A stretch of DNA of 54,128 nt from an uncultured Oscillospiraceae bacterium (GTDB taxonomy: Bacteria > Bacillota > Clostridia > Saccharofermentanales > UBA5734): contig CAZOHH010000003.1 of the NCBI GenBank assembly GCA_964579735.1, forward strand, positions 20,759 to 74,886. The letters are read 5' to 3'. The notes beneath the pieces are model-generated. The model saw only the letters and a list, made by a program, of their open reading frames with translations. It was not told where the DNA came from and made no database searches. Made by a program: the position numbers and the translations under genes. Positions 1,318 through 47,409 of the stretch are shown one piece after another (position 1 is the stretch's first letter; every line of letters starts with the position of its first letter).

Positions 1318-2031
1318 ATGATCCGCAGGGAGATCGTCGAAATCGGTCGAAGAATGTATGCGAGGGGACTTGTCGCTTCCTTCGATGGAAACATCAGCGT
1401 GAGGACTCCCGATGGACGCGTGTGGACGACCCCGACAGGTGTGCCGAAGGGGTTTCTCAAACCGAGGGAGCTGGTCTGCGTCGACCTCGAAGGCAACATT
1501 CTCGCAGGAAGGAGGGCGCCTTCCTCGGAACTGAAGATGCACCTTCGCGTTTACCATGAGAATCCGGCTGTCTTCGCCGTGGTCCACGCCCACCCCCCGG
1601 TCGCGACTTCCTACGCCATAGCGGGTTATCGACTCGACCGTGCGATTCTCGCCGAGCCCACGGTGACCCTTGGCATCGTACCCGTAGCTCCCTATGCGAC
1701 GCCTGGGTCTCAGGAGGTCCCGGACTCCATCGCACCGTACTGCAGGACGTCCAACGCCGTCCTGCTTGCCAATCACGGTGCCCTGACATGGGGCGCAGAT
1801 CTATTGGAAGCCTATGGCAGGATGGAGTCCGTCGAATACTACGCGACGGTTCTGATGAACACGCTGAGCCTGATCGGACGTGCGAATGTCCTCGGTACAG
1901 CGCAAGTCGACAAGCTTCTGCGCATTCGGGAATCGCTCGGCATCCAGGCGGGAGGCATACCGCCCACGGTCCAGGAAGAGTCGAATCTCGGTGGATTCCC
2001 ATCGGTACCCCTTCCGCGCCGAGAGACGTGA
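1318..2031 (+). CDS. Class II aldolase/adducin-fold protein (MtnB dehydratase or Ald2-type 5-(methylthio)ribulose-1-P aldolase)
   Basis: ATG at 1318 sits 9 nt after the mtnA stop, in the frame of ORF 652..2031. Motifs: GLVASFDGNISVR, TPTGVPKG, SSELKMH, VVHAHPP, LLANHGALTWG (class II aldolase metal and catalytic motifs). The 652-1317 part of the ORF overlaps mtnA and is not coding. Confidence 0.8.
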   Translation: MIRREIVEIGRRMYARGLVASFDGNISVRTPDGRVWTTPTGVPKGFLKPRELVCVDLEGNILAGRRAPSSELKMHLRVYHENPAVFAVVHAHPPVATSYAIAGYRLDRAILAEPTVTLGIVPVAPYATPGSQEVPDSIAPYCRTSNAVLLANHGALTWGADLLEAYGRMESVEYYATVLMNTLSLIGRANVLGTAQVDKLLRIRESLGIQAGGIPPTVQEESNLGGFPSVPLPRRET

Positions 2032-2113
2032 ATGTGCCGATGGCATCGAGGGGAAGGCTCCCCGAAGGCGTCTCTGTGCTATAATCCCCTTGTCCACAGG
2101 AGGTCGCCGCCCC

Positions 2114-3337
2114 ATGAAACGTCTGCATTCAACCACACCCGATGATCCAGGCGCGGATCCGGCCATACAGATTCGAAAGGTCGACCCGACGCGAAAACCC
2201 GGAAATGCCAGGAACACGATTCGGTTGATCGTCCGAGTCGTGGCGCTGGTCGTGCTGGTCGGATCTCTCGTCAGCCTCGCCATTACGGAATACCAGTACT
2301 ACCAGGCAAGACGCGATTTCGACGTCATCCGGAACACTCTCCCGACGGAATCGATCGAAGAGGTGTTCAATCACCCCACGGACGCGGTCGTCGTGACTCC
2401 GGAACCTGGCGAGACCTATGAGACGCTGCTTTCGAGCGACATACTGATCACTTCGGACGGCGTTCAACCCCAGTATGTCCAGCTCTACAGGAAGAATCCG
2501 CAGCTCGCCGGATGGATCCGTTTCCCGGGTTGGCCGTTGTATCCGATCGACTATCCGATCATGTACTCCGGCGACAACGACTTCTACCTCCGACGGGACT
2601 TCTCCAAGAAGCACTCCAGCGCCGGGTGCATCTTCATGGACGGCGCCAATGATCCGCACACGATAGGACGCAATCTCGTGCTCTATGGGCACGCCATGAG
2701 ATCCAGGACCATGTTCGGCAACATCGAGGACTATCCGGAGAACAAGACCGGGTGGGAGACCAGCCACACCATCTACATCGACCTGCTCTGGACGCGACTC
2801 GAATACGAGGTCTTCTCCACATACTACACCACCAGTACGGCCGACTACCGGCAGACATATTTCGCCGATGACGCGGGGTTCGGCAGTTACGTGGATATGC
2901 TCAAGGCCCGGTCGGCTCACGACTTCGGGGTCGAAGTCGGACCACGCGATCGGATACTGACCCTTTCGACGTGCCAGAACGATGTCGGCCACGATCGTCG
3001 AGTCGCTGTCCATGCAAAGCTCATCCGCAGGATCGTCTTCAACCGCTCGAACATCTCCTCCGCGGAAATCACGGGGGTTCCGCCCGGCGTGACCGGTGCC
3101 GTCGTGCCGACCGACGTCCCCAAGAATACGCCGACCCCCTTGCTTTCCCCTGAACTGCCCAGCCCCACTCTGGAGCCAACCGTCGACCCGACTCTCGAAC
3201 CCAGTCCGGTGCCGACGCCGGATCCCGACTTATCTCCGATACCGACCCTTGACCCCACTCTTGAGCCGACTTTGGCGCTGACGCCGGCGATATCGACGAC
3301 TCCGGAGCCAAGTGCTTCGCCGACCCCGAATCCCTGA
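2114..3337 (+). CDS. srtB: Class B sortase with N-terminal membrane anchor and Pro/Thr/Glu-rich C-terminal tail
   Basis: ATG 2114 is preceded by aggagg (2098-2103). TM segment IRLIVRVVALVVLVGSLVSLAI. Motifs: GWIRFPG...YPIMYSGDNDFYLRRDF, catalytic His in LVLYGHAM, Cys in LTLSTCQ, Arg in RRVAVHAKL. Confidence 0.85.
   Translation: MKRLHSTTPDDPGADPAIQIRKVDPTRKPGNARNTIRLIVRVVALVVLVGSLVSLAITEYQYYQARRDFDVIRNTLPTESIEEVFNHPTDAVVVTPEPGETYETLLSSDILITSDGVQPQYVQLYRKNPQLAGWIRFPGWPLYPIDYPIMYSGDNDFYLRRDFSKKHSSAGCIFMDGANDPHTIGRNLVLYGHAMRSRTMFGNIEDYPENKTGWETSHTIYIDLLWTRLEYEVFSTYYTTSTADYRQTYFADDAGFGSYVDMLKARSAHDFGVEVGPRDRILTLSTCQNDVGHDRRVAVHAKLIRRIVFNRSNISSAEITGVPPGVTGAVVPTDVPKNTPTPLLSPELPSPTLEPTVDPTLEPSPVPTPDPDLSPIPTLDPTLEPTLALTPAISTTPEPSASPTPNP
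3080..3334 (+). repeat. Low-complexity coding repeat (imperfect PTLEPT/DPTLEP units) forming the sortase C-terminal tail
   Basis: Translation ...PSPTLEPTVDPTLEPSPVPTPDPDLSPIPTLDPTLEPTLALTPAISTTPEPSASPTPNP. The DNA shows degenerate repeats of ccgac(t/c)ct(c/t)ga(a/g)cc. Confidence 0.7.
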
Positions 3338-10627: not shown

Positions 10628-10729
10628 CAAAGCACCCCCTGGGTTATCGTATCCTCATCAAGGCAAGAGTGCCTTCAACTATATCAAGCGAGATTTGCGT
10701 CCGATTGTCAACAGGAAGGTAGGAAATTC

Positions 10730-11326
10730 GTGGATTTCAGAAGGACCCGACTCCATTCGGTCTCCGGTGACCTCGCCGGCCTCCCCCCTCCGGAACGTCC
10801 TGAAATCGTCGTGGTGGGCCGCTCGAACGTCGGGAAATCCTCGCTCGTCAACGCACTGGGCGACAATCGGACTTTGGCGCGGATCAGCTCGATGCCCGGC
10901 AAGACGCGTCTCGTCATCATCTTCGACGTCGACGGCCTGCTCTTCCTCGTCGACCTGCCCGGATACGGCTACGCCAAGGTCGCCAAGGAAAAGAAGAAGG
11001 ACTTCTCCAAGCTCGTGGAAGGGTATCTTCATTCCACCCGCGATCTTCGTATGGCCATCCATATCGTCGACATCCGCCATGAACCTTCTCCGGAAGACCA
11101 GCTCATGCGGGGTTGGCTCCTCTCCCGCGGAATCAGGACCGTCACCGTCCTGACCAAGGCGGACAAGCTGACCCGCATGCAGGTGCTGGAACGGCATGCC
11201 GCCATCCGAAGCTTCTTTGCCCTTGGCGAGGAGGACCGCACCATCGTCTTTTCAGCCGAGAATCGGACCGGAGTCGAGGAATTGCGCGGTATCATCGAAA
11301 AAGTGGTGAATTTGACGTCCATTTAG
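10730..11326 (+). CDS. engB: Ribosome biogenesis GTP-binding protein YsxC/EngB
   Basis: GTG 10730 after ggaaggtagg. G1 GRSNVGKSSLVNAL, G3 DLPGYGYA, G4 LTKADKL. Confidence 0.9.
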   Translation: MDFRRTRLHSVSGDLAGLPPPERPEIVVVGRSNVGKSSLVNALGDNRTLARISSMPGKTRLVIIFDVDGLLFLVDLPGYGYAKVAKEKKKDFSKLVEGYLHSTRDLRMAIHIVDIRHEPSPEDQLMRGWLLSRGIRTVTVLTKADKLTRMQVLERHAAIRSFFALGEEDRTIVFSAENRTGVEELRGIIEKVVNLTSI

Positions 11327-23487: not shown

Positions 23488-23877
23488 GTGAAGATCGTAT
23501 TGCTTGCCGACCACCGGAAGAACGAGTTGCTCGTGAACTTCTGCATCGCCTATTGCCGGATCCTCGAGAAGCATGAGCTCGTTTCGGTCTCCAACACCGC
23601 TCGTCTCGTGAAAAGCGCTTCGAATCTAGAGGTCATCGGTATCTCCGCGGACAATTCGGGAGGACTCGAACCCTTGGCTTCCCGTGCGATCTTCAACGAG
23701 ATCGATGCCGTCATATACCTTCGCGACCCGATGCTCGACGAATACGACCTTCCCAACCCGCTGACCCGCGCCTGCGACGTGAACAGCATTCCCTACGCGA
23801 CGAACCTCGCGACAGCCGAGGTGCTCGTTCTCGCCATAGACCGCGGAGACCTTGACTGGCGCAAGCTGATCCGTTGA
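23488..23877 (+). CDS. Methylglyoxal synthase-like (MGS fold) protein with non-canonical active-site residues
   Basis: GTG start. 129 aa, colinear with MgsA (KIVLLADHRKNELL..., ...IDAVIYLRDP..., IPYATNLATAEVLV), but the TGTTG, GGDQQ and PHxPD motifs read VSNTA, GGLEP and YDLPN. Confidence 0.7.
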   Translation: MKIVLLADHRKNELLVNFCIAYCRILEKHELVSVSNTARLVKSASNLEVIGISADNSGGLEPLASRAIFNEIDAVIYLRDPMLDEYDLPNPLTRACDVNSIPYATNLATAEVLVLAIDRGDLDWRKLIR

Positions 23878-34024: not shown

Positions 34025-34098
34025 GATCCTCGTCCGGCACTTCTGAAGTCTTAGGATGAAGCCATGGGAAACCGTGGTTCATGCAAAGAGGTGATGAA

Positions 34099-34365
34099 AT
34101 GACGACGCTGGAAGCCGCGATTGCGGTGCCCTTGATTCTGCTGATGGTTCTTTCGCTGATTCTTGCGGCCCCTCTTGGGTATACGGCCGTACTCGCCACT
34201 GCGAAGCTGTCCGTCGAGGAAACCCAGATGGATCGAACGATCAGACCGGAACAGCTGATTCGGATCGGGATGGCCGTCACCGATTCGGCGTCGATTCTTT
34301 CGGCGTGGATTCCTGGGCTCGGAGACCTTCTGGTTGCTTTGGGAGGTAGCCGGGATGTCGGGTGA
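34099..34365 (+). CDS. Small TadE-like (pseudopilin-type N-terminus) membrane protein, 88 aa
   Basis: ATG 34099 follows a near-consensus SD gaggtgat with 7-nt spacing. The upstream in-frame ATG 34081 has no SD. N-terminus MTTLEAAIAVPLILLMVLSLILAAP (Glu5 plus a hydrophobic helix). Confidence 0.55.
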   Translation: MTTLEAAIAVPLILLMVLSLILAAPLGYTAVLATAKLSVEETQMDRTIRPEQLIRIGMAVTDSASILSAWIPGLGDLLVALGGSRDVG

Positions 34366-35848
34366 ACCCGCTATGCGCCGATTCGCCTCCAGGCACGGTA
34401 CCGTCTCCCTTGTCCTGGCTTTGGTCGCCGCCTCGGGACTGATCGTGATGGGCATCTTCCTTCAAGGCGCGCGGATCAGAGCAGCGGAAGCCAACGTTCT
34501 ACGATGCGTCGATTCTTCCTCGCGAATCGCCTTGTCGACCTATGGGGGTGCATTGCTGCAGCGCTATGGGATCTTCGCGGTCGACACGGGAAGGAGCGAC
34601 TCATGGCGTGAGAACGCGGTCCATGCTTTCGATGAGTCGAAGGTGTCAGAAGCCTCGGCATGCCGGTTGGAGGTCCTCGCCCTGGATTCCCTTGGGGACA
34701 GAGAGGTTCTTGCCGCGGCGATTCGGAACTTCGTAGGAGACCGTCTTCCTGCGTTGATCATCGCCATGGGGATAGACAAGCTGTCTGGCATCGGAAGACA
34801 GGCGATTCCGGTTTCCTTCGACCCTCTGTTCGATACCGGTGGCGAAGAGGATTCGACCTCGGGGTCATGGGGTGCCGCTCTTCTCGAATTGGCTGCGAAA
34901 TCGGGCTCCTCCGAGGAGGCGCCTTATGTAAGCCCCGATGATCCTTCCTACGATATCGGAGATGCCTCGCAGGATATGAGCGAATGCCTGAGGGAGATCC
35001 AGGCCATGAATCGAATGGCCGCCGAAGATCCCACACGCCCGAGTCTTCCTTCTCCTCTGGACCCGGCATCGATGATCGGGTTCCTATCCGAAACCATGAA
35101 CGGGCTTCCTGCTTCCGTGGAAGCGATCCTGGACGAAGCTTCCCTCGATATCTATGCAACGACGATGTTCCGATCCCGGGTCCTCACTGGCTCCGACGAC
35201 GGCGTCTCGTTCCCTTATACGGATCTTCGAGGACGCGCGATATCGAGCCTTGCTTGTGTCGATCTCTACGAAGCGGAACGGATCGTCGCAGGACGCAACA
35301 CGGACGCGGAGAATCTGCTAGCCGTCGAGCGCCGCATTCTCGCGATCCGCTTCGCCTTCCAGATGGTCTCTCAGCTGAGCGACGAATCATGCCGGGAAAA
35401 GGCGCAGGCACTCGCGGCTGTTTTGTCCGGTCTTCTTTCCGCAGCCACATCCGGGGCCCTTGTGATTCCCACCGGCTTCCTTGCCATCGCGCTTCAGGCG
35501 GCCTGGGCCTTCCAGTCCGCCCGTTCCGAAGTACAGACGCTCGTGGAGGGCGGTTCCGTTCCATTCCTGCCGGAAGGCATGGTGCGAAACCTCCCCGAAC
35601 TGGCTCAATGGAAAGCGGCTTACAGCGATCACCTCACCCTCCTCCTGTTGGCCGTGCCGACTCGCATCAAGCTCGAACGGATCGCTTCCATCATCGAGAA
35701 GAACATCGCTCTTTTCGGCTCGTCGGAGTCGAGCGCAGAAGGAAAAGCACCGTTATCCGGCTACGCTACGCGCATAGTGGCCTCGACATGGTATCGGGGA
35801 GACATGGTTTCAAGGTCGACGGGGTTCTATGACGATGCCGCGCGTTGA
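34355..35848 (+). CDS. Membrane-anchored hypothetical protein, DUF5702-like (Firmicutes Tad-locus-associated family)
   Basis: ATG 34355 after gggagg (8-nt spacing), overlapping the previous gene by 11 nt. TM anchor TVSLVLALVAASGLIVMGIFL, an acidic linker, and a C-terminal block LYEAERIVAG...LLAVERRILAIRFAFQM...LQAAWAFQSARSEV. The family match is from memory, not a search. Confidence 0.6.
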   Translation: MSGEPAMRRFASRHGTVSLVLALVAASGLIVMGIFLQGARIRAAEANVLRCVDSSSRIALSTYGGALLQRYGIFAVDTGRSDSWRENAVHAFDESKVSEASACRLEVLALDSLGDREVLAAAIRNFVGDRLPALIIAMGIDKLSGIGRQAIPVSFDPLFDTGGEEDSTSGSWGAALLELAAKSGSSEEAPYVSPDDPSYDIGDASQDMSECLREIQAMNRMAAEDPTRPSLPSPLDPASMIGFLSETMNGLPASVEAILDEASLDIYATTMFRSRVLTGSDDGVSFPYTDLRGRAISSLACVDLYEAERIVAGRNTDAENLLAVERRILAIRFAFQMVSQLSDESCREKAQALAAVLSGLLSAATSGALVIPTGFLAIALQAAWAFQSARSEVQTLVEGGSVPFLPEGMVRNLPELAQWKAAYSDHLTLLLLAVPTRIKLERIASIIEKNIALFGSSESSAEGKAPLSGYATRIVASTWYRGDMVSRSTGFYDDAAR

Positions 35849-36824
35849 CCGGCTGAGAAGAAGGAATGGCTCTTTCGCATTGGAGACCGCTATTGCCTTG
35901 CCCGGGTTCATTTTGGTCGCGACCGTTCTTTTGACCGGAATGGCGGCTTCGCGCATCGGCGTCCATGTGGACATGGCACTTGAAGGGATGTGCCGGAGTA
36001 TCAGCCTTGGGGGGCCTGCAGCGGATTTCATAGGTGTCGATAGACTCGGAGATGTTCTGGATTCGATAGGGGAGAAAGACTCGCGATCGATCCTGGACGG
36101 TCTCGACTTGTCAGGGCTGAAGGATCTTCTTGTCTGTGGCGCTGCCGACTTGGCGCTGCCCTTCTTGTTCGAGACCGAATACAACGCCGCTCCATCCCGA
36201 AGCGGCGTAGACGGCATGATCATCGGAGCAGGGAATGAGCGCTGGAAAGTCGAATGTGAATCGCGGCTTTCAGACGAGATGGTCCGAATCACGATGGTCT
36301 ATGCGCTGCGCACGCCCTTCGGCCTCATCGAACGGCGCGCGTCCTGTTTCCTGTCGCTCTGGGAGGAAGGAGACGGAACCCGGGATGCAAGGGAGGGGGA
36401 GAATGTATGGAGTCTCGACAAGCTTGTTCGAGGCCGCACCCTGAGAGCACGCTTCGGAGGGAATCTGCCGATGGGATTTCCTGTGCTTTCGGCTTTCCGC
36501 AATGGAACGGCCACGGTGATCCATAGCATGGACTTGTCTGCAATGGGGTGGCAGGACGTTGTCGAAGCGGAACGGGAGATCGTCGAACGAATCGATGCTC
36601 TGGTCGGATTCAATGGGACCCTATCTCCATGGGGTTCGGACGGCATCAACATCGCACCTGGAACCATCCAGGCGCGCCATTTCCTTCTCGTCGTCCCTAC
36701 CAATACCGATGAAGACCGTTTTGCGTCGATTCTCGACCGATGCACCCTTCTAGCCTCCCGAAAAGGTGCCGTGATGTCGGTCGTGCGATATCAGGAAAGG
36801 CTAGCTGCGGTTGCGATGGAATAG
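35829..36824 (+). CDS. TadE-like pseudopilin-type protein with unassigned ~140-aa C-terminal domain
   Basis: Overlaps the previous gene by 20 nt. N-terminus RRRNG/SFALETAIALPGFILVATVLL matches G/xxxxE plus a hydrophobic helix. C-terminal region from GENVWSLDKLVRG... to ...MSVVRYQ. Confidence 0.62.
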   Translation: MTMPRVDRLRRRNGSFALETAIALPGFILVATVLLTGMAASRIGVHVDMALEGMCRSISLGGPAADFIGVDRLGDVLDSIGEKDSRSILDGLDLSGLKDLLVCGAADLALPFLFETEYNAAPSRSGVDGMIIGAGNERWKVECESRLSDEMVRITMVYALRTPFGLIERRASCFLSLWEEGDGTRDAREGENVWSLDKLVRGRTLRARFGGNLPMGFPVLSAFRNGTATVIHSMDLSAMGWQDVVEAEREIVERIDALVGFNGTLSPWGSDGINIAPGTIQARHFLLVVPTNTDEDRFASILDRCTLLASRKGAVMSVVRYQERLAAVAME

Positions 36825-36870
36825 TGCAAGTAGTATCATTCCAAGAAGAATGAAGAAGTCGGGAGAGAAA

Positions 36871-38178
36871 ATGAAGCGTGTATTGAGTAAAGGCGTCCGG
36901 AGGACCCTCGTGGCCGTCCTTTCCTTGAGTGTCGTCATCGTCGCCGCCGCGACCTATTTCGTCGTGGACCTTCTCGGTCGCGCCGGGCGAACCGATGTCG
37001 ACATCGTCGACAAGGTGACCGTTCCCTCCGGGTCTCTGGATGACATCACGGAACAGCCTGAGGATTCATCCATCGAGGAAGATCCCGATGCGACCGGAGG
37101 CGCCGCCACGACGCCTCGACCCGCCCTCTCCCGCAACTGGGGGCAAGGCATCTGCCCCGTCTACGTCGTCTCGTCGATCCCCATTCAGAAGGTCGCCCAG
37201 AGGGTCGAAGGAGTTGAAAACATCCTCGTCTTCGGAGTCGATTCCCGGTCGGCGTCGACGAAGGCCTCGCGCACGGATACGATGATGATCGTCACCATCG
37301 ATACCCGCAATGGAAGCAAGACCATCAAGCTCATATCGCTCCTTCGCGACACCCAGGTCGATATCGCCGGTCGTACCCTGCCGAACAAGCTCAATACGCC
37401 CTACGTATTCGGCGGAATCGGATTGATGCTCAATACGATCAACTCTACCTTCGACCTCGACATCCAGAAGTTCATCATGATCGACCTCTCCAGCGCAGAG
37501 CACATCATCGACATGACCGGCGGCATCGAGGTCAACGTGCTTGGCAAGGAGCTCGAGTGGCTCAACATCAACATCAATGAGACGAACAACCTTTTCAAGA
37601 AGGGATCCCGTCCGAAGTCCCCGAACATCTTCACTTCCGGACTGCAGACCCTGGATGGTCGACAGGCTGTCGCATATGGCCGGATCCGGAAGGTCGACAG
37701 CGACTTCCAGAGGACGACCCGTCAGCGGTACGTCGCGAAGCAACTGCTCAAGGCATTCCTCAATGCGACGGTCGATAGGAAGTACACGGCGCTGCAAGCC
37801 GCTTTCGATGGGATCAACACGAACATGACCTATGGCGAAATGTTCCGCATCGCGTCCGATACCGTCTCCTCCATGCCGACGGATCTTTCCTCGGTTCGTG
37901 AATACAAGGTGCCGGCTTCCGGGATGTACACGGAAGACAGGGCCACGTTTAATCTCGTCATGAATCTACCCGTTCAGATCGCCGACCTGCACCGTTTCAT
38001 CTGGAGCACGTCGACTGACGTGACGACGACACCCGAATCCACTCCCGAGGTCAGTCCGGAGATTTCTCCGACCTTCGTTCCCTCTCCGACCCTGGATGCG
38101 ACGCCGGCTTCTACCGATGGAGAACCCTCTCCGACCCCTACCCCTGATTCCGTTGCGACTCCGACCTCTGTAGAATGA
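36871..38178 (+). CDS. LytR-CpsA-Psr (LCP) family cell-wall polymer ligase, with Pro/Thr/Ser-rich C-terminal tail
   Basis: ATG 36871 after gggagag. Alternative ATG 36850 and TTG 36811. TM anchor, then ILVFGVDSR....RTDTMMIVTID, LISLLRDT, FGGIGLMLNTINSTFDLDIQKFIMIDLS. Confidence 0.85.
   Translation: MKRVLSKGVRRTLVAVLSLSVVIVAAATYFVVDLLGRAGRTDVDIVDKVTVPSGSLDDITEQPEDSSIEEDPDATGGAATTPRPALSRNWGQGICPVYVVSSIPIQKVAQRVEGVENILVFGVDSRSASTKASRTDTMMIVTIDTRNGSKTIKLISLLRDTQVDIAGRTLPNKLNTPYVFGGIGLMLNTINSTFDLDIQKFIMIDLSSAEHIIDMTGGIEVNVLGKELEWLNININETNNLFKKGSRPKSPNIFTSGLQTLDGRQAVAYGRIRKVDSDFQRTTRQRYVAKQLLKAFLNATVDRKYTALQAAFDGINTNMTYGEMFRIASDTVSSMPTDLSSVREYKVPASGMYTEDRATFNLVMNLPVQIADLHRFIWSTSTDVTTTPESTPEVSPEISPTFVPSPTLDATPASTDGEPSPTPTPDSVATPTSVE
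38008..38175 (+). repeat. Low-complexity Pro/Thr/Ser/Glu-rich coding tail of LCP-1
   Basis: STSTDVTTTPESTPEVSPEISPTFVPSPTLDATPASTDGEPSPTPTPDSVATPTSVE. Same composition as the sortase tail at 3080-3334. Confidence 0.65.
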
Positions 38179-38219
38179 ACCCTATCGAACGTCCTTGAAA
38201 TGGAAAGGAATCGATTCAC

Positions 38220-39425
38220 TTGAAACAGAAGCGAACGCTTGGAAACGTCCATTCCCGTCAGTACAGCGACCTTTCCCCCTTCCAGGGCCGCAGCCGCCGA
38301 CGTCCCCGTGTCTTTCGGACGCTGTTGGGCATCGTGCTTGTGGTGGTCCTCATCGGTATCGTATCCTTCGGCGGGTTCCTTCTCGCCGGTTATCTCAAGA
38401 TCACACGGGATGCGACTCCGAATGTCACGCCTACGCCTTCCTCCTCGATCACGCAGCCGGTGACGCCTGGTATTTCACCTGAACCCACGTTCGTCGATAT
38501 CGCCGGACTCGAGCGGGATCTTCGCGTACCCATCGAAACCGTCGCCCAGAAGGATCCGGACGTCCAGAACATCCTCCTCATCGGGGTCGACCGGCGCAAT
38601 ACGGCCTCCACGACGGGAAACAGCGACACCATGATGATCATCTCCGTCGACCGCCGCAACAACGATATCAAGCTCATGTCCGTCCTACGTGACTGCTATG
38701 TGACCATCCAGAAGGACGGCAAGACCGTGAAGGCGAAGATCAATGCAGCATACGCATATGGTGGGCCCGGCCTCACCATCAACACCTTGAACCGGACCTT
38801 CGACCTCGATATCCAGAAATACGTGCTCGTGGACTTCCAGAGTTCAGAAGCGGTGATCAACTCCGCAGGTGGACTCGACATCTTCGTGAGCGAAAAAGAG
38901 ATCAAGTGGGCCAACGACAGCATCAAGGAAACCAACCGGGTCATACTGCCGAACACGCCGGCTTCTCCTGAAATCACCGAAGCCGGTCTTCAACATCTCG
39001 ATGCTCGCCAGGCCATCAGCTGGGCCCGCATCCGCAAGACCGATCTCGTCGTCGATGGCAAGACCTATGCCATGGACATGGGCCGTGCGGAGCGACAGAA
39101 GATTCTTCTACGGGCTCTGATGGACAAGTTCTTCGCGATCGATGCGATTTCGAAGATCGACATGATGAATCAGGTGTTCGGCATGGTGGAGACGAACCTC
39201 CGTCTTTCGGAATCGTTGTCGCTGATGCAGTTCGCGGCGACCAAGCTCACGAAGGACTCGAGCCAGATCGCCGGATTCACGATTCCGTCCTATTCCACTC
39301 GGACCGTAGTGGAGACCCCGGTCTGGTGCTTCGTCGTGGATTTCAACAAGGCGATACCCGAGCTCCAGCAGTTCATCTGGGGCAAGACCTTTGAATTCAC
39401 GCCCCGCGATCCTGTCTCACCGTAG
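38220..39425 (+). CDS. LCP family protein, tandem paralogue
   Basis: TTG start, with no in-frame ATG before the TM segment. ILLIGVDRR....NSDTMMIISVD, LMSVLRDC, YGGPGLTINTLNRTFDLDIQKYVLVDF. Confidence 0.85.
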   Translation: MKQKRTLGNVHSRQYSDLSPFQGRSRRRPRVFRTLLGIVLVVVLIGIVSFGGFLLAGYLKITRDATPNVTPTPSSSITQPVTPGISPEPTFVDIAGLERDLRVPIETVAQKDPDVQNILLIGVDRRNTASTTGNSDTMMIISVDRRNNDIKLMSVLRDCYVTIQKDGKTVKAKINAAYAYGGPGLTINTLNRTFDLDIQKYVLVDFQSSEAVINSAGGLDIFVSEKEIKWANDSIKETNRVILPNTPASPEITEAGLQHLDARQAISWARIRKTDLVVDGKTYAMDMGRAERQKILLRALMDKFFAIDAISKIDMMNQVFGMVETNLRLSESLSLMQFAATKLTKDSSQIAGFTIPSYSTRTVVETPVWCFVVDFNKAIPELQQFIWGKTFEFTPRDPVSP

Positions 39426-39759: not shown

Positions 39760-42585
39760 ATGGGACTCTTCTCTAAAATCTTCGGAACCCACAGCGACCG
39801 CGAAATCAAGCGCATCCTGCCTCTCGTCGATAGCGTCGAGGCGCTTTCCGACAGATGTTCCGCGATGTCGGAGGACGAACTCAAGTCGATGACGCAAATC
39901 TTCCGAAATCGGGTCCAGGCAGGCGAAACCCTCGACGATCTTCTTCCAGAGGCTTTCGCGGTCGTAAGGGAAGCCTCCTGGCGCGTCCTCGGCATGCGCC
40001 ACTATCGCGTCCAGATCATCGGCGGAATCGTACTCCATCAGGGCAGGATCTCCGAGATGAAGACCGGCGAGGGCAAGACCCTCGTCGCGACGCTTCCGGT
40101 CTATCTCAATGCGCTGGCCGGCAAAGGGGTCCACGTCGTCACCGTCAACGATTATCTGGCCCGTCGCGACAGCGAGTGGATGGGCAAGATCTATCGCTAC
40201 CTCGGACTCGACGTAGGGCTCATCGTTCACGGAATCGACAACGCCGAACGGCGAAGAGCCTATGCCAGCGATGTCACCTATGGGACGAACAATGAGTTCG
40301 GTTTCGACTACCTCCGCGACAACATGGTCATACGCAGCGAGGAACGGGTTCAGCGCGATCTCAATTTCGCTATCGTGGATGAGGTCGACAGCATCCTGAT
40401 CGACGAAGCGAGGACCCCTCTCATCATCTCCGGCATGGGAGAGAAGTCGACCGATCTGTACGAAAAAACCGATGTCTTCGTACGTCGACTGAAAGTCCGA
40501 ATCGTCACGGAGCTCGACGACAAGCAGGACTATGAGGATACCGAGTCCGAAGCCGACTACATCATCGATGAGAAGGCGAATACCGCCGTTCTGACCGCGG
40601 AAGGCGTCACAAAGGCGGAACGCCACTTCGGCGTGACGAATCTCTCCGATGCGGAGAACTACACCCTGCAGCATCATCTGAGCAATGCACTCAGAGCGCA
40701 CGGTCTCATGAAACTCGACCACCAGTATGTCGTGAAGGACGGTGAGATCATCATCGTGGATGACTTCACCGGCAGACTGATGTTCGGCAGACGCTACAGC
40801 GATGGCCTCCATCAGGCCATAGAGGCCAAGGAGGGCGTCAAGGTCGAGCGGGAGAGCAAGACCCTGGCGACCATCACCTTCCAGAACTATTTCCGCATGT
40901 ATGGCAAACTGTCCGGCATGACGGGCACGGCACTCACCGAAGAAGAGGAGTTCCGCGCGATCTACAAGCTCGACGTCATCACGATTCCTACACACAAGGA
41001 CATGATCCGAAGTGACGAGCCCGATGCGGTCTTCAAGACGCTCCGCGGCAAATACATGGCCCTGCTCGAGGAAGTGAAGGAAGTCCACGCCAAGGGACAA
41101 CCGATCCTGATCGGCACGGTCTCCGTCGAACGTTCTGAGTTCATCTCGACCTTGCTGAAACGGGACGGGATTCCCCACAATGTCTTGAATGCGAAGCAGC
41201 ATGAACGCGAAGCCGAAATCGTCGCCCAGGCAGGCCGGTTCGGCCAGGTCACGCTGGCGACGAACATGGCCGGACGTGGTACTGACATCCTGTTAGGCGG
41301 AAATCCTGAATTCCTCTCCAAGCAGGAGATGCGAAAGCAAGGGGTCGATGAAGCCCTGATCGATGCGTCGACCACGCATAACGAGACACTGGATCCATTG
41401 GTTCTTGAAGCCAGAACCCGCTATGCGGAGCTCTTTGCGCGATATCGCATCCAGACCGATACCGAGCATGTCAAGGTCGTCGAAGCGGGCGGTCTCTACA
41501 TCATGGGAACGGAAAGGCATGAATCCAGACGTATCGACAATCAGCTTCGTGGCCGGTCAGGACGTCAAGGCGACCCGGGGCGGAGCCGTTTCTTCATGTC
41601 CCTTGAAGACGATCTGATGCGGCTGTTCGGTGGAGACCGGATGCTTTCGATGTTCAACGTCCTCGGTGTCGAGGAGGACATGCCGATCGAGCACCCCATG
41701 TTATCCAACGCCATCGAGACGGCCCAGAAGCGCGTCGAAGGTAGGAATTTCAATATCCGCAAGCACGTACTCGAATACGACGACGTGATGAACAAGCAGC
41801 GTGAAGTGATCTATGGTCAGAGGCTGAAGGTGCTTGAAGGGCAGGATCTGAGGGATACGTATCTTCGCATGGTGGGCTCCGTGGCACACAAGGTAGCCGG
41901 TGCCTTCTGCAGCGATGTGGATATCCCCGAACGATGGGATTGGGAGGCATTCGAAGCACGCATCAACGACGTCTTCGGAGACATCCCCGCCATCGAGCGC
42001 TGTCAGGTGGAGTTGAACGTGCTCGACGCCAAGACCGCAACCGAAATCGTCGTCGATGCGGCACTGGAACGATACGCCCAGCGTGACGAGCAGATCGGCG
42101 GTCCCGAAATCATGCGAGAGGCGGAGCGGGTCGTGTTGCTGAGGACCGTCGACGAAAAGTGGATGGACCATATCGACGCGATGGACGAACTCCGATCCGG
42201 CATCGGCATGCGCGGCTATGCGCAGTTGAACCCCGTGATCGAGTATCGACGGGAGGGGTTCGAGATGTTCGAGGCCATGAACCTCGCCATCCAGGAGGAC
42301 TCCGTCCGAATCATGATGAAGGGCCGCTTCACGACGGAACAGCCTCTCCGCAGGCAGGCCGTCGCACACGACCTCAAGGAGTCCCATGGCGGTACCGGTT
42401 ACGTAGAAGGAGAACCCGCGCCGACGGCAGCGACTCCTCAAGGTCGTTCGACCGCTGCATCCGGTGGAAAAACGACATCCACTCCGGTCAAGGCAGCTCC
42501 CAAGGCAGGACGAAACGATCCCTGTCCCTGTGGAAGCGGCAAGAAGTACAAGAACTGCCACGGAGCGAATTCCAGCGACCTTTAG
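39760..42585 (+). CDS. secA: Preprotein translocase ATPase SecA (with C-terminal SEC-C zinc motif)
   Basis: 941 aa. [77 protein letters not shown]-terminus [19 protein letters not shown]. Confidence 0.98.
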
Positions 42586-46165: not shown

Positions 46166-46200
46166 AAAGGCGTCTCCGGAACACCGGAGGCGCCTTCTTG
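46166..46200 (+). terminator. Intrinsic terminator after tRNA-Thr
   Basis: aaggcgtctccgg / ccggaggcgcctt (one G.U), loop aaca, followed by CTTGTT. Confidence 0.6.
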
Positions 46201-46223
46201 TTATACTCATCAGCCCCCTGTAT

Positions 46224-46232
46224 TGATATAAT
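46224..46232 (+). promoter_or_regulatory. Extended -10 promoter element (TGaTATAAT) upstream of the 46273 gene
   Basis: tgatataat at 46224-46232, 41 nt before the ATG. No good -35 element. Confidence 0.4.
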
Positions 46233-46272
46233 GTTCCAGTATGACCGGGTTTTAGCGCACGGAGGGCTTCCC

Positions 46273-47409
46273 ATGGCGGATTTCCGCATCGTCGAGGTAT
46301 CGACCCGAAAGGACGTGGATCGATTCGTCGACCTCGCCTTCCGCATCTATCGCAAGGAACCGGGTTGGAGCCCGATACTGCGGGCAGATGTCGCGAACTA
46401 TCTTCGCCCCGAAACCAATGGTTTCATCGCGAATGGCCCCTTCCTCGTCCTGATTACCCTAAGGGATGGGAAATGCCTATCCCGTGTGCTTGCCGGCGTC
46501 GACGAGAAGTCGAATGGAATCAGAGGCGTGCGCAATGGTTGGTTCTCCCTCTTCGAATGCATTCCCGGTGAGGAACTCGCTGCAACCGCGATGATGGACC
46601 ACGTATCCGCATTCATGAAGGAGCACGGAGTCGTCAAGGTCACTGGCCCCCTCTCCCCAAACGGAAGCGACGAGTTCAAGGGTTTCCTCAAGGTGGGACG
46701 CGACCATCCAGCTCCCTACCTGTGCTCATGGAATCCGGAGTGGTACACGACCTTCTTTCAGAAGCTAGGTTATACGGATATCCACCGACTTTTCGGCTAT
46801 CGGATCGAGAAGGCCGACATCCCCTTCGAGCGATACCAGCGTGTCGTCGCATACGCGAAAGAGCGGTATGGTTTCCGCGTGGATCCCATCGACCTGAAGC
46901 ACCTCGAAAGAGAACTGGAGGATATCGGCAGGATTCTGGAGGTCGCGATTCTCGAGTCCTGGGAGGACCTGACCCCTCCGTCCATCGATGAGTTGCGGAA
47001 ACAGGCCGACTCCCTCAAGAAGGTCGCCGATCCCAATCTCATCATGATCGCCCGGCGCGTATCCGACAATGCGCCCATCGGTTTCGACCTGATCCTTCCC
47101 GACTACGGGGATGTACTGCGCCACTTGAACGGACGGATGGGCTTGATCGGATCACTGAAATTCCTGTACTACCGCAGGAAGATCACCGGTGTCCGTGGAT
47201 TCGCGCAGTTCGTCGTACCCGAATACAAGCACAAGGGAGTCATGTCCGCCATCTTCCTCGAAGTCTTCGACCGAGGCATCAAGAAGGGATACTGCTGGGG
47301 CGACGCCTCTACGGTCGGCGAAGAGAACACACCTTCCCTTGCGAATATCCAGAGCCTCGGTGCGAAGCTCTACAAGGAATATTGGGTGATGAGCCGTGAT
47401 CTTCGCTGA
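46273..47409 (+). CDS. Large (378-aa) GNAT-related acyl-CoA N-acyltransferase-fold protein of unknown substrate
   Basis: ATG 46273 after ggaggg. The layout MADFRIVEV.TRKDVDRFVDLAFRIY...PGWSP.L, ...GWFSLFEC..., VTGPLSPNGSDEFKGFL, NPEWY..FF.KLGY matches a widespread family annotated as N-acetyltransferase. Recognised from memory. Confidence 0.62.
   Translation: MADFRIVEVSTRKDVDRFVDLAFRIYRKEPGWSPILRADVANYLRPETNGFIANGPFLVLITLRDGKCLSRVLAGVDEKSNGIRGVRNGWFSLFECIPGEELAATAMMDHVSAFMKEHGVVKVTGPLSPNGSDEFKGFLKVGRDHPAPYLCSWNPEWYTTFFQKLGYTDIHRLFGYRIEKADIPFERYQRVVAYAKERYGFRVDPIDLKHLERELEDIGRILEVAILESWEDLTPPSIDELRKQADSLKKVADPNLIMIARRVSDNAPIGFDLILPDYGDVLRHLNGRMGLIGSLKFLYYRRKITGVRGFAQFVVPEYKHKGVMSAIFLEVFDRGIKKGYCWGDASTVGEENTPSLANIQSLGAKLYKEYWVMSRDLR

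Follow-up and report, generated by a model that had tools for sequence, protein, structure and literature searches.

A DUF5702-containing pseudopilin-like trio away from Tad machinery in an uncultured Oscillospiraceae bacterium: a probable detached minor-pilin set

The 54,128-nucleotide stretch of DNA analyzed here (contig CAZOHH010000003.1 of assembly GCA_964579735.1, positions 20,759 to 74,886, from an uncultured Oscillospiraceae bacterium; hereafter the window) carries three co-oriented, overlapping open reading frames (ORFs) at 34099-36824 (+), here called A, B and C. They raise a simple question: what do proteins that resemble Tad pilus components do where no pilus machinery is encoded? 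ORF calling in the 54-kb window recovered the overlaps given in an initial annotation of this DNA (11 nucleotides (nt) between A and B, 20 nt between B and C), and the peptide strings quoted there were all present. We found that A and C are TadE-type through their families, that B is a DUF5702 protein, and that the same trio stands in complete Tad loci elsewhere. Our favored reading, to which we give a probability of about 0.6, is that the trio represents the minor-pilin priming and tip set of a Bacillota Tad/Flp-type (type IVc) filament system whose machine is encoded elsewhere.

Gene contexts of the DUF5702 trio

Protein B matches DUF5702 (PF18960) at 70.6 bits (cutoff 26, E = 1.4e-19) and aligns over its full length with distant typical members of 450-520 amino acids (aa) in blastp. 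A profile built from B and its five closest relatives retrieved 2803 proteins at E<=1e-3, among which the scores of its own clade stand apart from all others by a wide gap. The initial annotation had read B as a DUF5702 protein and had placed such proteins inside Firmicutes Tad loci; the Pfam match bears out the former, and 37 of 80 genome loci bear out the latter. These 80 loci were obtained by scanning a single genome for each species with a 12-sequence DUF5702 subfamily alignment; their ORFs were called and labeled locally, and the seeds were confirmed with Pfam in L030, L021, L003, L039 and L044. Because the scan rested on one peptide pattern, the resulting 37/29/9/6 split describes that subfamily and not all DUF5702 proteins.

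Context (i), identified in Paenibacillus, Cohnella and several Clostridia, accounts for the 37 Tad-embedded loci and has the order TadZ–CpaF–TadB–TadC–Flp–TadE–DUF5702–TadE(-like)–A24–FHA. The placement of the TadE-like, DUF5702 and TadE-like genes directly after flp and before Peptidase_A24 was confirmed with Pfam in L030 (Paenibacillus) and L039, and the third gene of the Clostridial Tad loci has the same PF21111 domain as C. The trio is detached in the other two contexts. Context (ii), with 29 loci, places it between a DD-carboxypeptidase/B12-radical-SAM pair and a PALP enzyme (rSAM…PALP), and context (iii), with 9 genome loci, places it between pheT and yerC–secA–mtnN–ahcY, which is the neighborhood of the window. 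A metagenome scan with C homologs added 23 further loci of context (iii), and relatives at 45-66% identity to the window proteins share the arrangement of the window. Motor genes were absent within ±10 kb of every detached locus of contexts (ii) and (iii).

Three sets of loci depart from these arrangements. L044 (684-5592) holds a detached trio of the rSAM…PALP context with its own Peptidase_A24 gene directly after it, then PolX; its contig of 8.5 kb has no CpaF or TadBC genes. A lone DUF5702 gene lies 5' of secA in L009 (9121-10779) and L063 (9863-11515), where no C-like ORF was called; here the module may have been reduced still further or have decayed. The metagenome loci L112, L113 and L117 form a fourth recurrent context of TadE–DUF5702–C-like genes, flanked by ORFs of ~578 and ~1150 aa upstream and of ~270-290 and 489 aa downstream.

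A neighbor-joining (NJ) tree of DUF5702 showed that the rSAM-context orphans nest within the Tad-embedded Clostridial genes, therefore detachment from Tad loci did occur. The pheT…yerC–secA context, window included, forms a separate deep clade, so that its descent from a Tad-embedded ancestor follows by parsimony only. On this reading the trio has left the Tad locus at least twice and has then long been kept among housekeeping genes. Across more than 30 diverged loci, with protein identities of 22-66%, its three ORFs are intact and in the same order, many columns are invariant or nearly so, and Shine–Dalgarno (SD) sequences are conserved. The trio (34099-36824) evolves much faster than the neighboring housekeeping proteins (compared region 39760-42585): B is 22-24% and C 24-32% identical to homologs in genomes whose SecA is 62-67% identical. 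The module is thus conserved far beyond this genome, with 9 genome and 23 metagenome loci in context (iii) itself, and the grounds on which the initial annotation would have given up the module do not apply.

N-termini and the nuclease-like domain

Protein C opens with a basic leader, MTMPRVDRLRRRNG, which ends at Gly14 and is followed by SFALE, with Glu at position +5, and by a hydrophobic alpha1N helix. The cleavage-site motif, RRRNG↓SFALETAIALPGFILV (the arrow marks the site), is that of a class-III signal peptide. The initial annotation had pointed to a TadE-type Gly, Glu and hydrophobic helix here, and the alignment of 10 relatives, in which G14, E19 and A21 are invariant, agrees. The Gly(-1)/Glu(+5) pair is invariant across relatives down to 25% identity (orthologs of C are 32-63% identical), and C-type proteins of the pheT…yerC–secA context have a basic leader, Gly at -1 (Ala in one) and Glu at +5. 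The N-terminus also gave a weak profile match to the N-terminus of the archaeal flagellin 7txi. Searched against Pfam, window C had no match above threshold and no PF07811 (TadE) match at E<=1; 14 of 28 aligned homologs do match PF07811 (for example L021, at 28 bits), so the TadE membership of C is one of transitive homology.

A different N-terminus was found in A, which begins MTTLEAAIAVPL, with Glu at position 5 counted from the initiator Met, and consists of one hydrophobic helix and a tail of ~50 aa. It has no Gly-ended leader for a prepilin peptidase to remove: translation opens at MTTLE behind an SD sequence (AGAGGTG, 5 nt 5' of the start at 34099), and a longer start at 34081 has no support from orthologs, which all open with MT[TA]LE or MSSALE. 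The direct comparison of A with Pfam TadE gave 10.5 bits (E = 0.7), under the threshold of 22.9, and neither DUF4320 nor DUF4860 matched A at E<=1. The profile of A orthologs is homologous to the TadE proteins of DUF5702 loci (hhalign, 92.8% probability, E = 3.9e-7), and the alignment opens exactly at the residue after the G↓ cleavage site of those TadE proteins. The TadE relationship proposed initially therefore stands for A and C through their families, and the window proteins themselves fall below the Pfam thresholds.

The description of A as a protein made already mature, with Glu5 and no leader, was strengthened by its relatives, since A is leaderless behind a strong SD sequence in every pheT…yerC–secA locus with a readable A start. 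Three residues separate Met from Glu in MTTLE, MLTLE, MHTIE, MSTLE and MFSIE, and four in MAFSLE, MAMTLE, MAYGLE, MAYSVE, MSSALE and MSHTLE, where the second position is always Ala or Ser; counted from the initiator Met, Glu is thus always residue 5 or 6. A strict rule that Met excision always yields Glu5 was dropped, because MSTLE and MTTLE would give Glu4 upon Met removal. A-type proteins of the other two contexts, a set picked by its G-x4-E motif, carry a leader before KG↓S-x-T-x-E in 54 of 54 cases. The lengths also differ, at 88-130 aa in the pheT…yerC–secA context versus 205-290 aa elsewhere.

The start of B lies 9 nt 3' of an SD sequence (GGGAGG), and its N-terminus resembles a class-III signal (RHG↓TVSLVLALV…) with Val, not Glu, at +5. 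This is a family trait: of 103 collected DUF5702 N-termini, 92 could be scored, and these have Gly (83) or Ala (the remaining 9) at -1 and in no case Glu or Asp at +5. Beyond the N-terminus B is predicted to be mostly helical, and members of its family show a weak N-terminal match to PF13400 ('Tad'). The AlphaFold2 (AF2) model of B was unusable (predicted local distance difference test score, pLDDT, 40.7). B proteins are ~450-600 aa long in the pheT…yerC–secA context versus 750-1300 aa elsewhere.

The C-terminal part of C holds a nuclease-like domain that was missed in the initial annotation. Its Pfam family, PF21111 (CDI_toxin_EC869_like), was matched by 17 of 28 aligned C homologs, which repeatedly pair it with a TadE match at the N-terminus. 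Window C alone reached 14 bits, under the threshold of 27, and the C family profile matched the CdiA-CT DNase 4zqu_A (E = 6e-9). The AF2 model of C (pLDDT 56) was usable for the C-terminal domain alone, and Foldseek found significant matches only to 4zqu_A (E = 1.7e-6) and 4g6u_A (E = 4.7e-6). By fold and by sequence, the domain is homologous to the PF21111 nucleases.

The catalytic residues of the EC869-type CdiA-CT toxins are E177, D198, S209 and K211 (PMC9086364). Alignment to 4g6u showed R, S, V and H in these columns of window C; with all four replaced, its nuclease domain is almost certainly inactive. D198 is kept in 7 of 8 Clostridial Tad-embedded homologs, in 0 of 25 of the rSAM…PALP context and, within the pheT…yerC–secA context, in 0 of 7 genome homologs, 0 of 9 of the window's clade and 5 of 15 metagenome homologs. 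The full E/D/S/K tetrad is kept only in L029 and L039, both Tad-embedded, and in no C homolog of an orphan context. The genes concerned (L039, 12434-13651; L029, 3022-4239) encode TadE-type pseudopilins in complete Clostridial Tad loci with an intact CdiA-CT DNase tetrad, therefore some Tad minor pilins may carry an active nuclease module. A separate group of metagenome loci, L125-L151, has a PF21111-like ORF without TadE or DUF5702 neighbors, and in most of them an ORF of ~140-185 aa comes next; they probably represent ordinary pairs of toxin and immunity genes matched through the nuclease domain alone.

A minor-pilin set or another use of the trio

From homology, motifs, gene order and the distribution of contexts we infer a complex, its place at a filament tip and a partner machine. 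The ancestor of the trio would be the tadE–DUF5702–tadE(F)-like block found behind flp where Tad loci are complete; in the lineage of the window this block would have been separated from the motor genes and now lie between pheST and yerC–secA. The three proteins would enter the cytoplasmic membrane via their N-terminal hydrophobic helices. An A24 prepilin peptidase encoded at another locus would cut C, and probably also B, behind the conserved Gly, and A would need no cleavage because its translation starts at the position of the mature N-terminus. The helices would bundle as a priming complex in which A and C provide Glu5 and B, without Glu5, is the cap. A CpaF/TadB/TadC-type machine encoded elsewhere would polymerize the major pilin beneath this complex, bringing it to the tip of the filament, where the helical DUF5702 body and the apparently dead nuclease-fold module of C would be exposed as binding surfaces.

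This proposal follows what is known of other type IV filaments, in which a subunit without Glu5 caps the tip complex and assembly begins from that complex, and in which some minor pilins are modular and bear grafted domains (PMC10191384). The trio has the same composition, with Val at +5 in B and Glu kept in A and C. Two Glu5 subunits co-encoded with a larger one that lacks Glu5, and following the major pilin gene where the machinery is linked, suggest a priming complex, and the prepilin signature that C has conserved speaks for continued use of a peptidase.

Comparison with known systems points the same way with some differences. The TadE/TadF (plus TadG) pseudopilins of Aggregatibacter and Caulobacter (PF07811, PF13400) are likewise three accessory membrane-anchored proteins; they share with C the short basic Gly-ended leader, Glu at +5 and hydrophobic helix, and they share with the trio relatives a position right after flp beside a short A24 peptidase. 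In contrast, the window trio is unlinked to tadZABC/flp/tadV, its proteins are under the PF07811 threshold, A has no leader, C carries a nuclease-fold module, and B is in DUF5702, a Bacillota family without a von Willebrand factor A (vWA) domain. The GspI/J/K, PilHIJK and S. sanguinis PilA/PilB/PilC complexes also combine a small pilin with larger modular pilins bearing grafted domains, include one Glu5-less member as the cap, and are often encoded away from motor genes (PMC10191384). The trio shares no sequence homology with these sets past the N-terminal helix, and its tip location and priming role are putative.

Several observations weigh against this assignment. No motor, platform, Flp or peptidase gene was found within the 54 kb of the window, nor within ±10 kb at loci of the same context. 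A and B are much reduced in this context, the leader of A is gone and the nuclease module apparently dead, all of which fits a change of function too. The AF2 models are too poor to show that B, or the globular portion of C other than its nuclease domain, folds like a pilin, and the deep separate position of the window context in the NJ tree leaves its Tad-embedded ancestry to parsimony.

These points lend themselves to an explanation that we hold possible at well below even odds, namely that in the pheT…yerC–secA lineages the trio has been repurposed as an autonomous membrane-anchored envelope complex without a type IV filament motor, perhaps working with LCP ligases in the window's clade. 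It would account for the lack of any machinery gene near ~30 loci of this context, for the systematic shrinkage of all three proteins together with the loss of the A leader and of all four catalytic residues, and for a housekeeping position stably kept at SecA identities of 62-67%. Without a prepilin peptidase and helix packing of the filament type, however, the invariant Gly(-1)/Glu(+5) of C would be difficult to account for; A keeps its Glu5/6, and minor-pilin operons apart from motor genes are normal in type IVa pili (PMC10191384). A more specific form of the idea is doubtful: a Clostridial clade may have turned the Tad trio into a non-canonical envelope complex beside secA, with a 'born-mature' pseudopilin that keeps Glu5 without a peptidase step, co-transcription with LCP genes and no pilus priming.

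The LCP genes bear directly on both forms. Two of them, identified with Pfam, lie directly 3' of the trio in the same orientation. The longest ORF of the first starts from TTG at 36811 and overlaps the end of C by 14 nt; likelier starts are ATG at 36851 or 36872, 27-48 nt past the C stop codon. No terminator-like site was detected in the gap of ~30-50 nt between C and the LCP genes, by a promoter/terminator scan that gave fewer matches than shuffled sequence, and the trio and the first LCP gene probably share a transcript, which favors repurposing. An LCP gene follows the trio only in the window's clade, however (five contigs and the fragment L086); the adjacency is absent from L002-L008 and other metagenome loci of the pheT…yerC–secA context and from all 66 loci of contexts (i) and (ii). 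Since it is limited to one clade, a general functional link between trio and LCP proteins is unlikely. The envelope link suggested in the initial annotation, for which conserved synteny was to be sought, did not hold across lineages, and we rejected it.

Other uses are less probable than a filament of Tad type. The trio might serve a non-Tad type IV filament, a Com pseudopilus or type IVa pilus, through a peptidase of PilD/ComC type; we consider this unlikely. The Tad core genes are indeed unlinked to the trio, ComEC is encoded in the window and indicates that DNA-uptake machinery is present in the organism, and one type IV filament can function with the minor-pilin set of another (PMC10191384). 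Yet all machinery-linked relatives of the trio are linked to Tad genes (CpaF, TadB/C, Flp1_like and a short A24 peptidase) and none to PilB, PilC or ComG genes, and the cleavage motif is Tad-type, G↓S/A-x-x-x-E with a TVEA-like sequence. The proposal that C is a polymorphic CdiA-CT-related nuclease toxin, and the module a toxin-delivery or competition locus, is very improbable. Its C-terminal domain has the fold of the CdiA-CT EC869/TA271 and YPIII Zn-dependent DNases (4G6U, 4ZQU, PF21111) and shares their motifs (W-x-L-x-N-x-x-R-G … N-F-P-V-I-x … I-K-S-x-D … L-L-V-I-P-x-N), and two Tad-embedded homologs keep the tetrad. Unlike those toxins, the domain of window C lacks the four catalytic residues, sits on a prepilin N-terminus and not on a CdiA/Rhs carrier, and belongs to a monoderm host. 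No immunity-like gene follows C directly (an LCP gene does so in the window, yerC in relatives), as opposed to the short ORFs behind the toxin-like matches of L125-L151; PADLOC gave no match for any of the three proteins, nor did NCBIfam; and the gene is stably inherited among housekeeping genes. An active toxin was rejected for its lost catalytic residues, absent immunity gene and blank PADLOC result, which speak against a defense function as well. Hardest of all to credit is a functionless remnant of a lost Tad locus. The shrunken proteins, the lost catalytic residues and a coding-potential score below that of the neighboring genes would fit decay, but the intact ORFs, kept order, near-invariant columns and SD sequences described above are those of deeply conserved genes, and we rejected a pseudogene.

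Neighboring genes and meaning of the trio

Pfam was run on the called ORFs of the window except at ~26.3-33.0 kb and 39.8-46.0 kb, which were covered via precomputed Pfam tables of relatives. It identified MtnA, a sortase-domain protein, RuvAB, an RqcH-like NFACT protein, Prs, ComEC, HolA, MreCD, PBP2 and a GltD-like protein, after which the order is EamA, the trio, the two LCP genes and YerC; a solute-binding protein (SBP), Ogt, a flavin reductase and MFS, PFK and GNAT proteins are encoded further downstream. PheST, an amino-acid ABC transporter, SecA, MtnN, AhcY and an amidohydrolase are placed in the window by inference from the tables of relatives. Neither the direct scan nor, for the two stretches, these tables contained T2SSE, T2SSF, Peptidase_A24 or Flp. 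When all six frames were screened for G/A/S-x4-E with a hydrophobic run behind it, a pilin-like N-terminus was found in C alone, the three other matches lying within the ComEC and EamA ORFs. Both scans agree with the initial view that the 54 kb hold no pilus machinery. That view had also made the trio the only block without assignable function, which was too narrow because three further ORFs have no Pfam match: 46198-47409 (+, 403 aa), 23488-23877 (+, 129 aa) and 10682-11197 (-, 172 aa). A protein of 485 aa at 1880-3337 (+), unusually long for a sortase, has a sortase domain (aa 241-381) as its sole Pfam match. Coordinates of the trio and its features are given in Table 1.

Table 1. Features of the trio and the adjacent LCP genes, in window coordinates
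Feature	Coordinates	Strand	Evidence
Gene A, leaderless TadE-like pseudopilin remnant, 88 aa	34099..34365	+	ORF, SD, orthologs, hhalign
Gene B, DUF5702 protein, 497 aa	34355..35848	+	Pfam PF18960, full-length blastp
DUF5702 Pfam match in B, aa 305-453	35267..35713	+	Pfam
Gene C, modular TadE-type prepilin, 331 aa	35829..36824	+	ORF, orthologs, family Pfam matches
Class-III signal peptide of C	35829..35942	+	Conserved residues in 10 relatives
C-terminal domain of C, ~aa 190-321, CdiA-CT EC869/TA271-type PD-(D/E)XK fold	36396..36791	+	Family profile, Foldseek
Two LCP (LytR_cpsA_psr) genes, context only	36851..39425	+	Pfam; 5' end is the likely ATG

Both DUF5702 and TadE are already catalogued as families, and minor pilins of Tad systems are familiar components. 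Literature searches on DUF5702 and on leaderless pilins returned nothing relevant, and DUF5702 is named in none of the papers of the library searched. With respect to that literature, four elements appear to be new as read from sequence: TadE–DUF5702–TadE/nuclease-like is defined as a unit of three genes, this unit has repeatedly become detached and settled in conserved housekeeping surroundings, its A proteins can lack a leader, and its third pilin bears a nuclease-fold module.

DUF5702 thereby gains a role based on its context: it would be the subunit lacking Glu5 among the three minor pilins of Bacillota Tad systems. Two features would be unusual for type IV pilin biology, a pseudopilin translated without a class-III leader that still has Glu at position 5 or 6, and a pseudopilin with a CdiA-CT-type module whose tetrad is full in the Tad-embedded L029 and L039 and apparently dead in the detached proteins. 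Should they be confirmed, these features would offer simple cases from nature in which to test why a leader peptide and a prepilin peptidase are needed, and would bear on the binding targets of Gram-positive Tad pilus tips.

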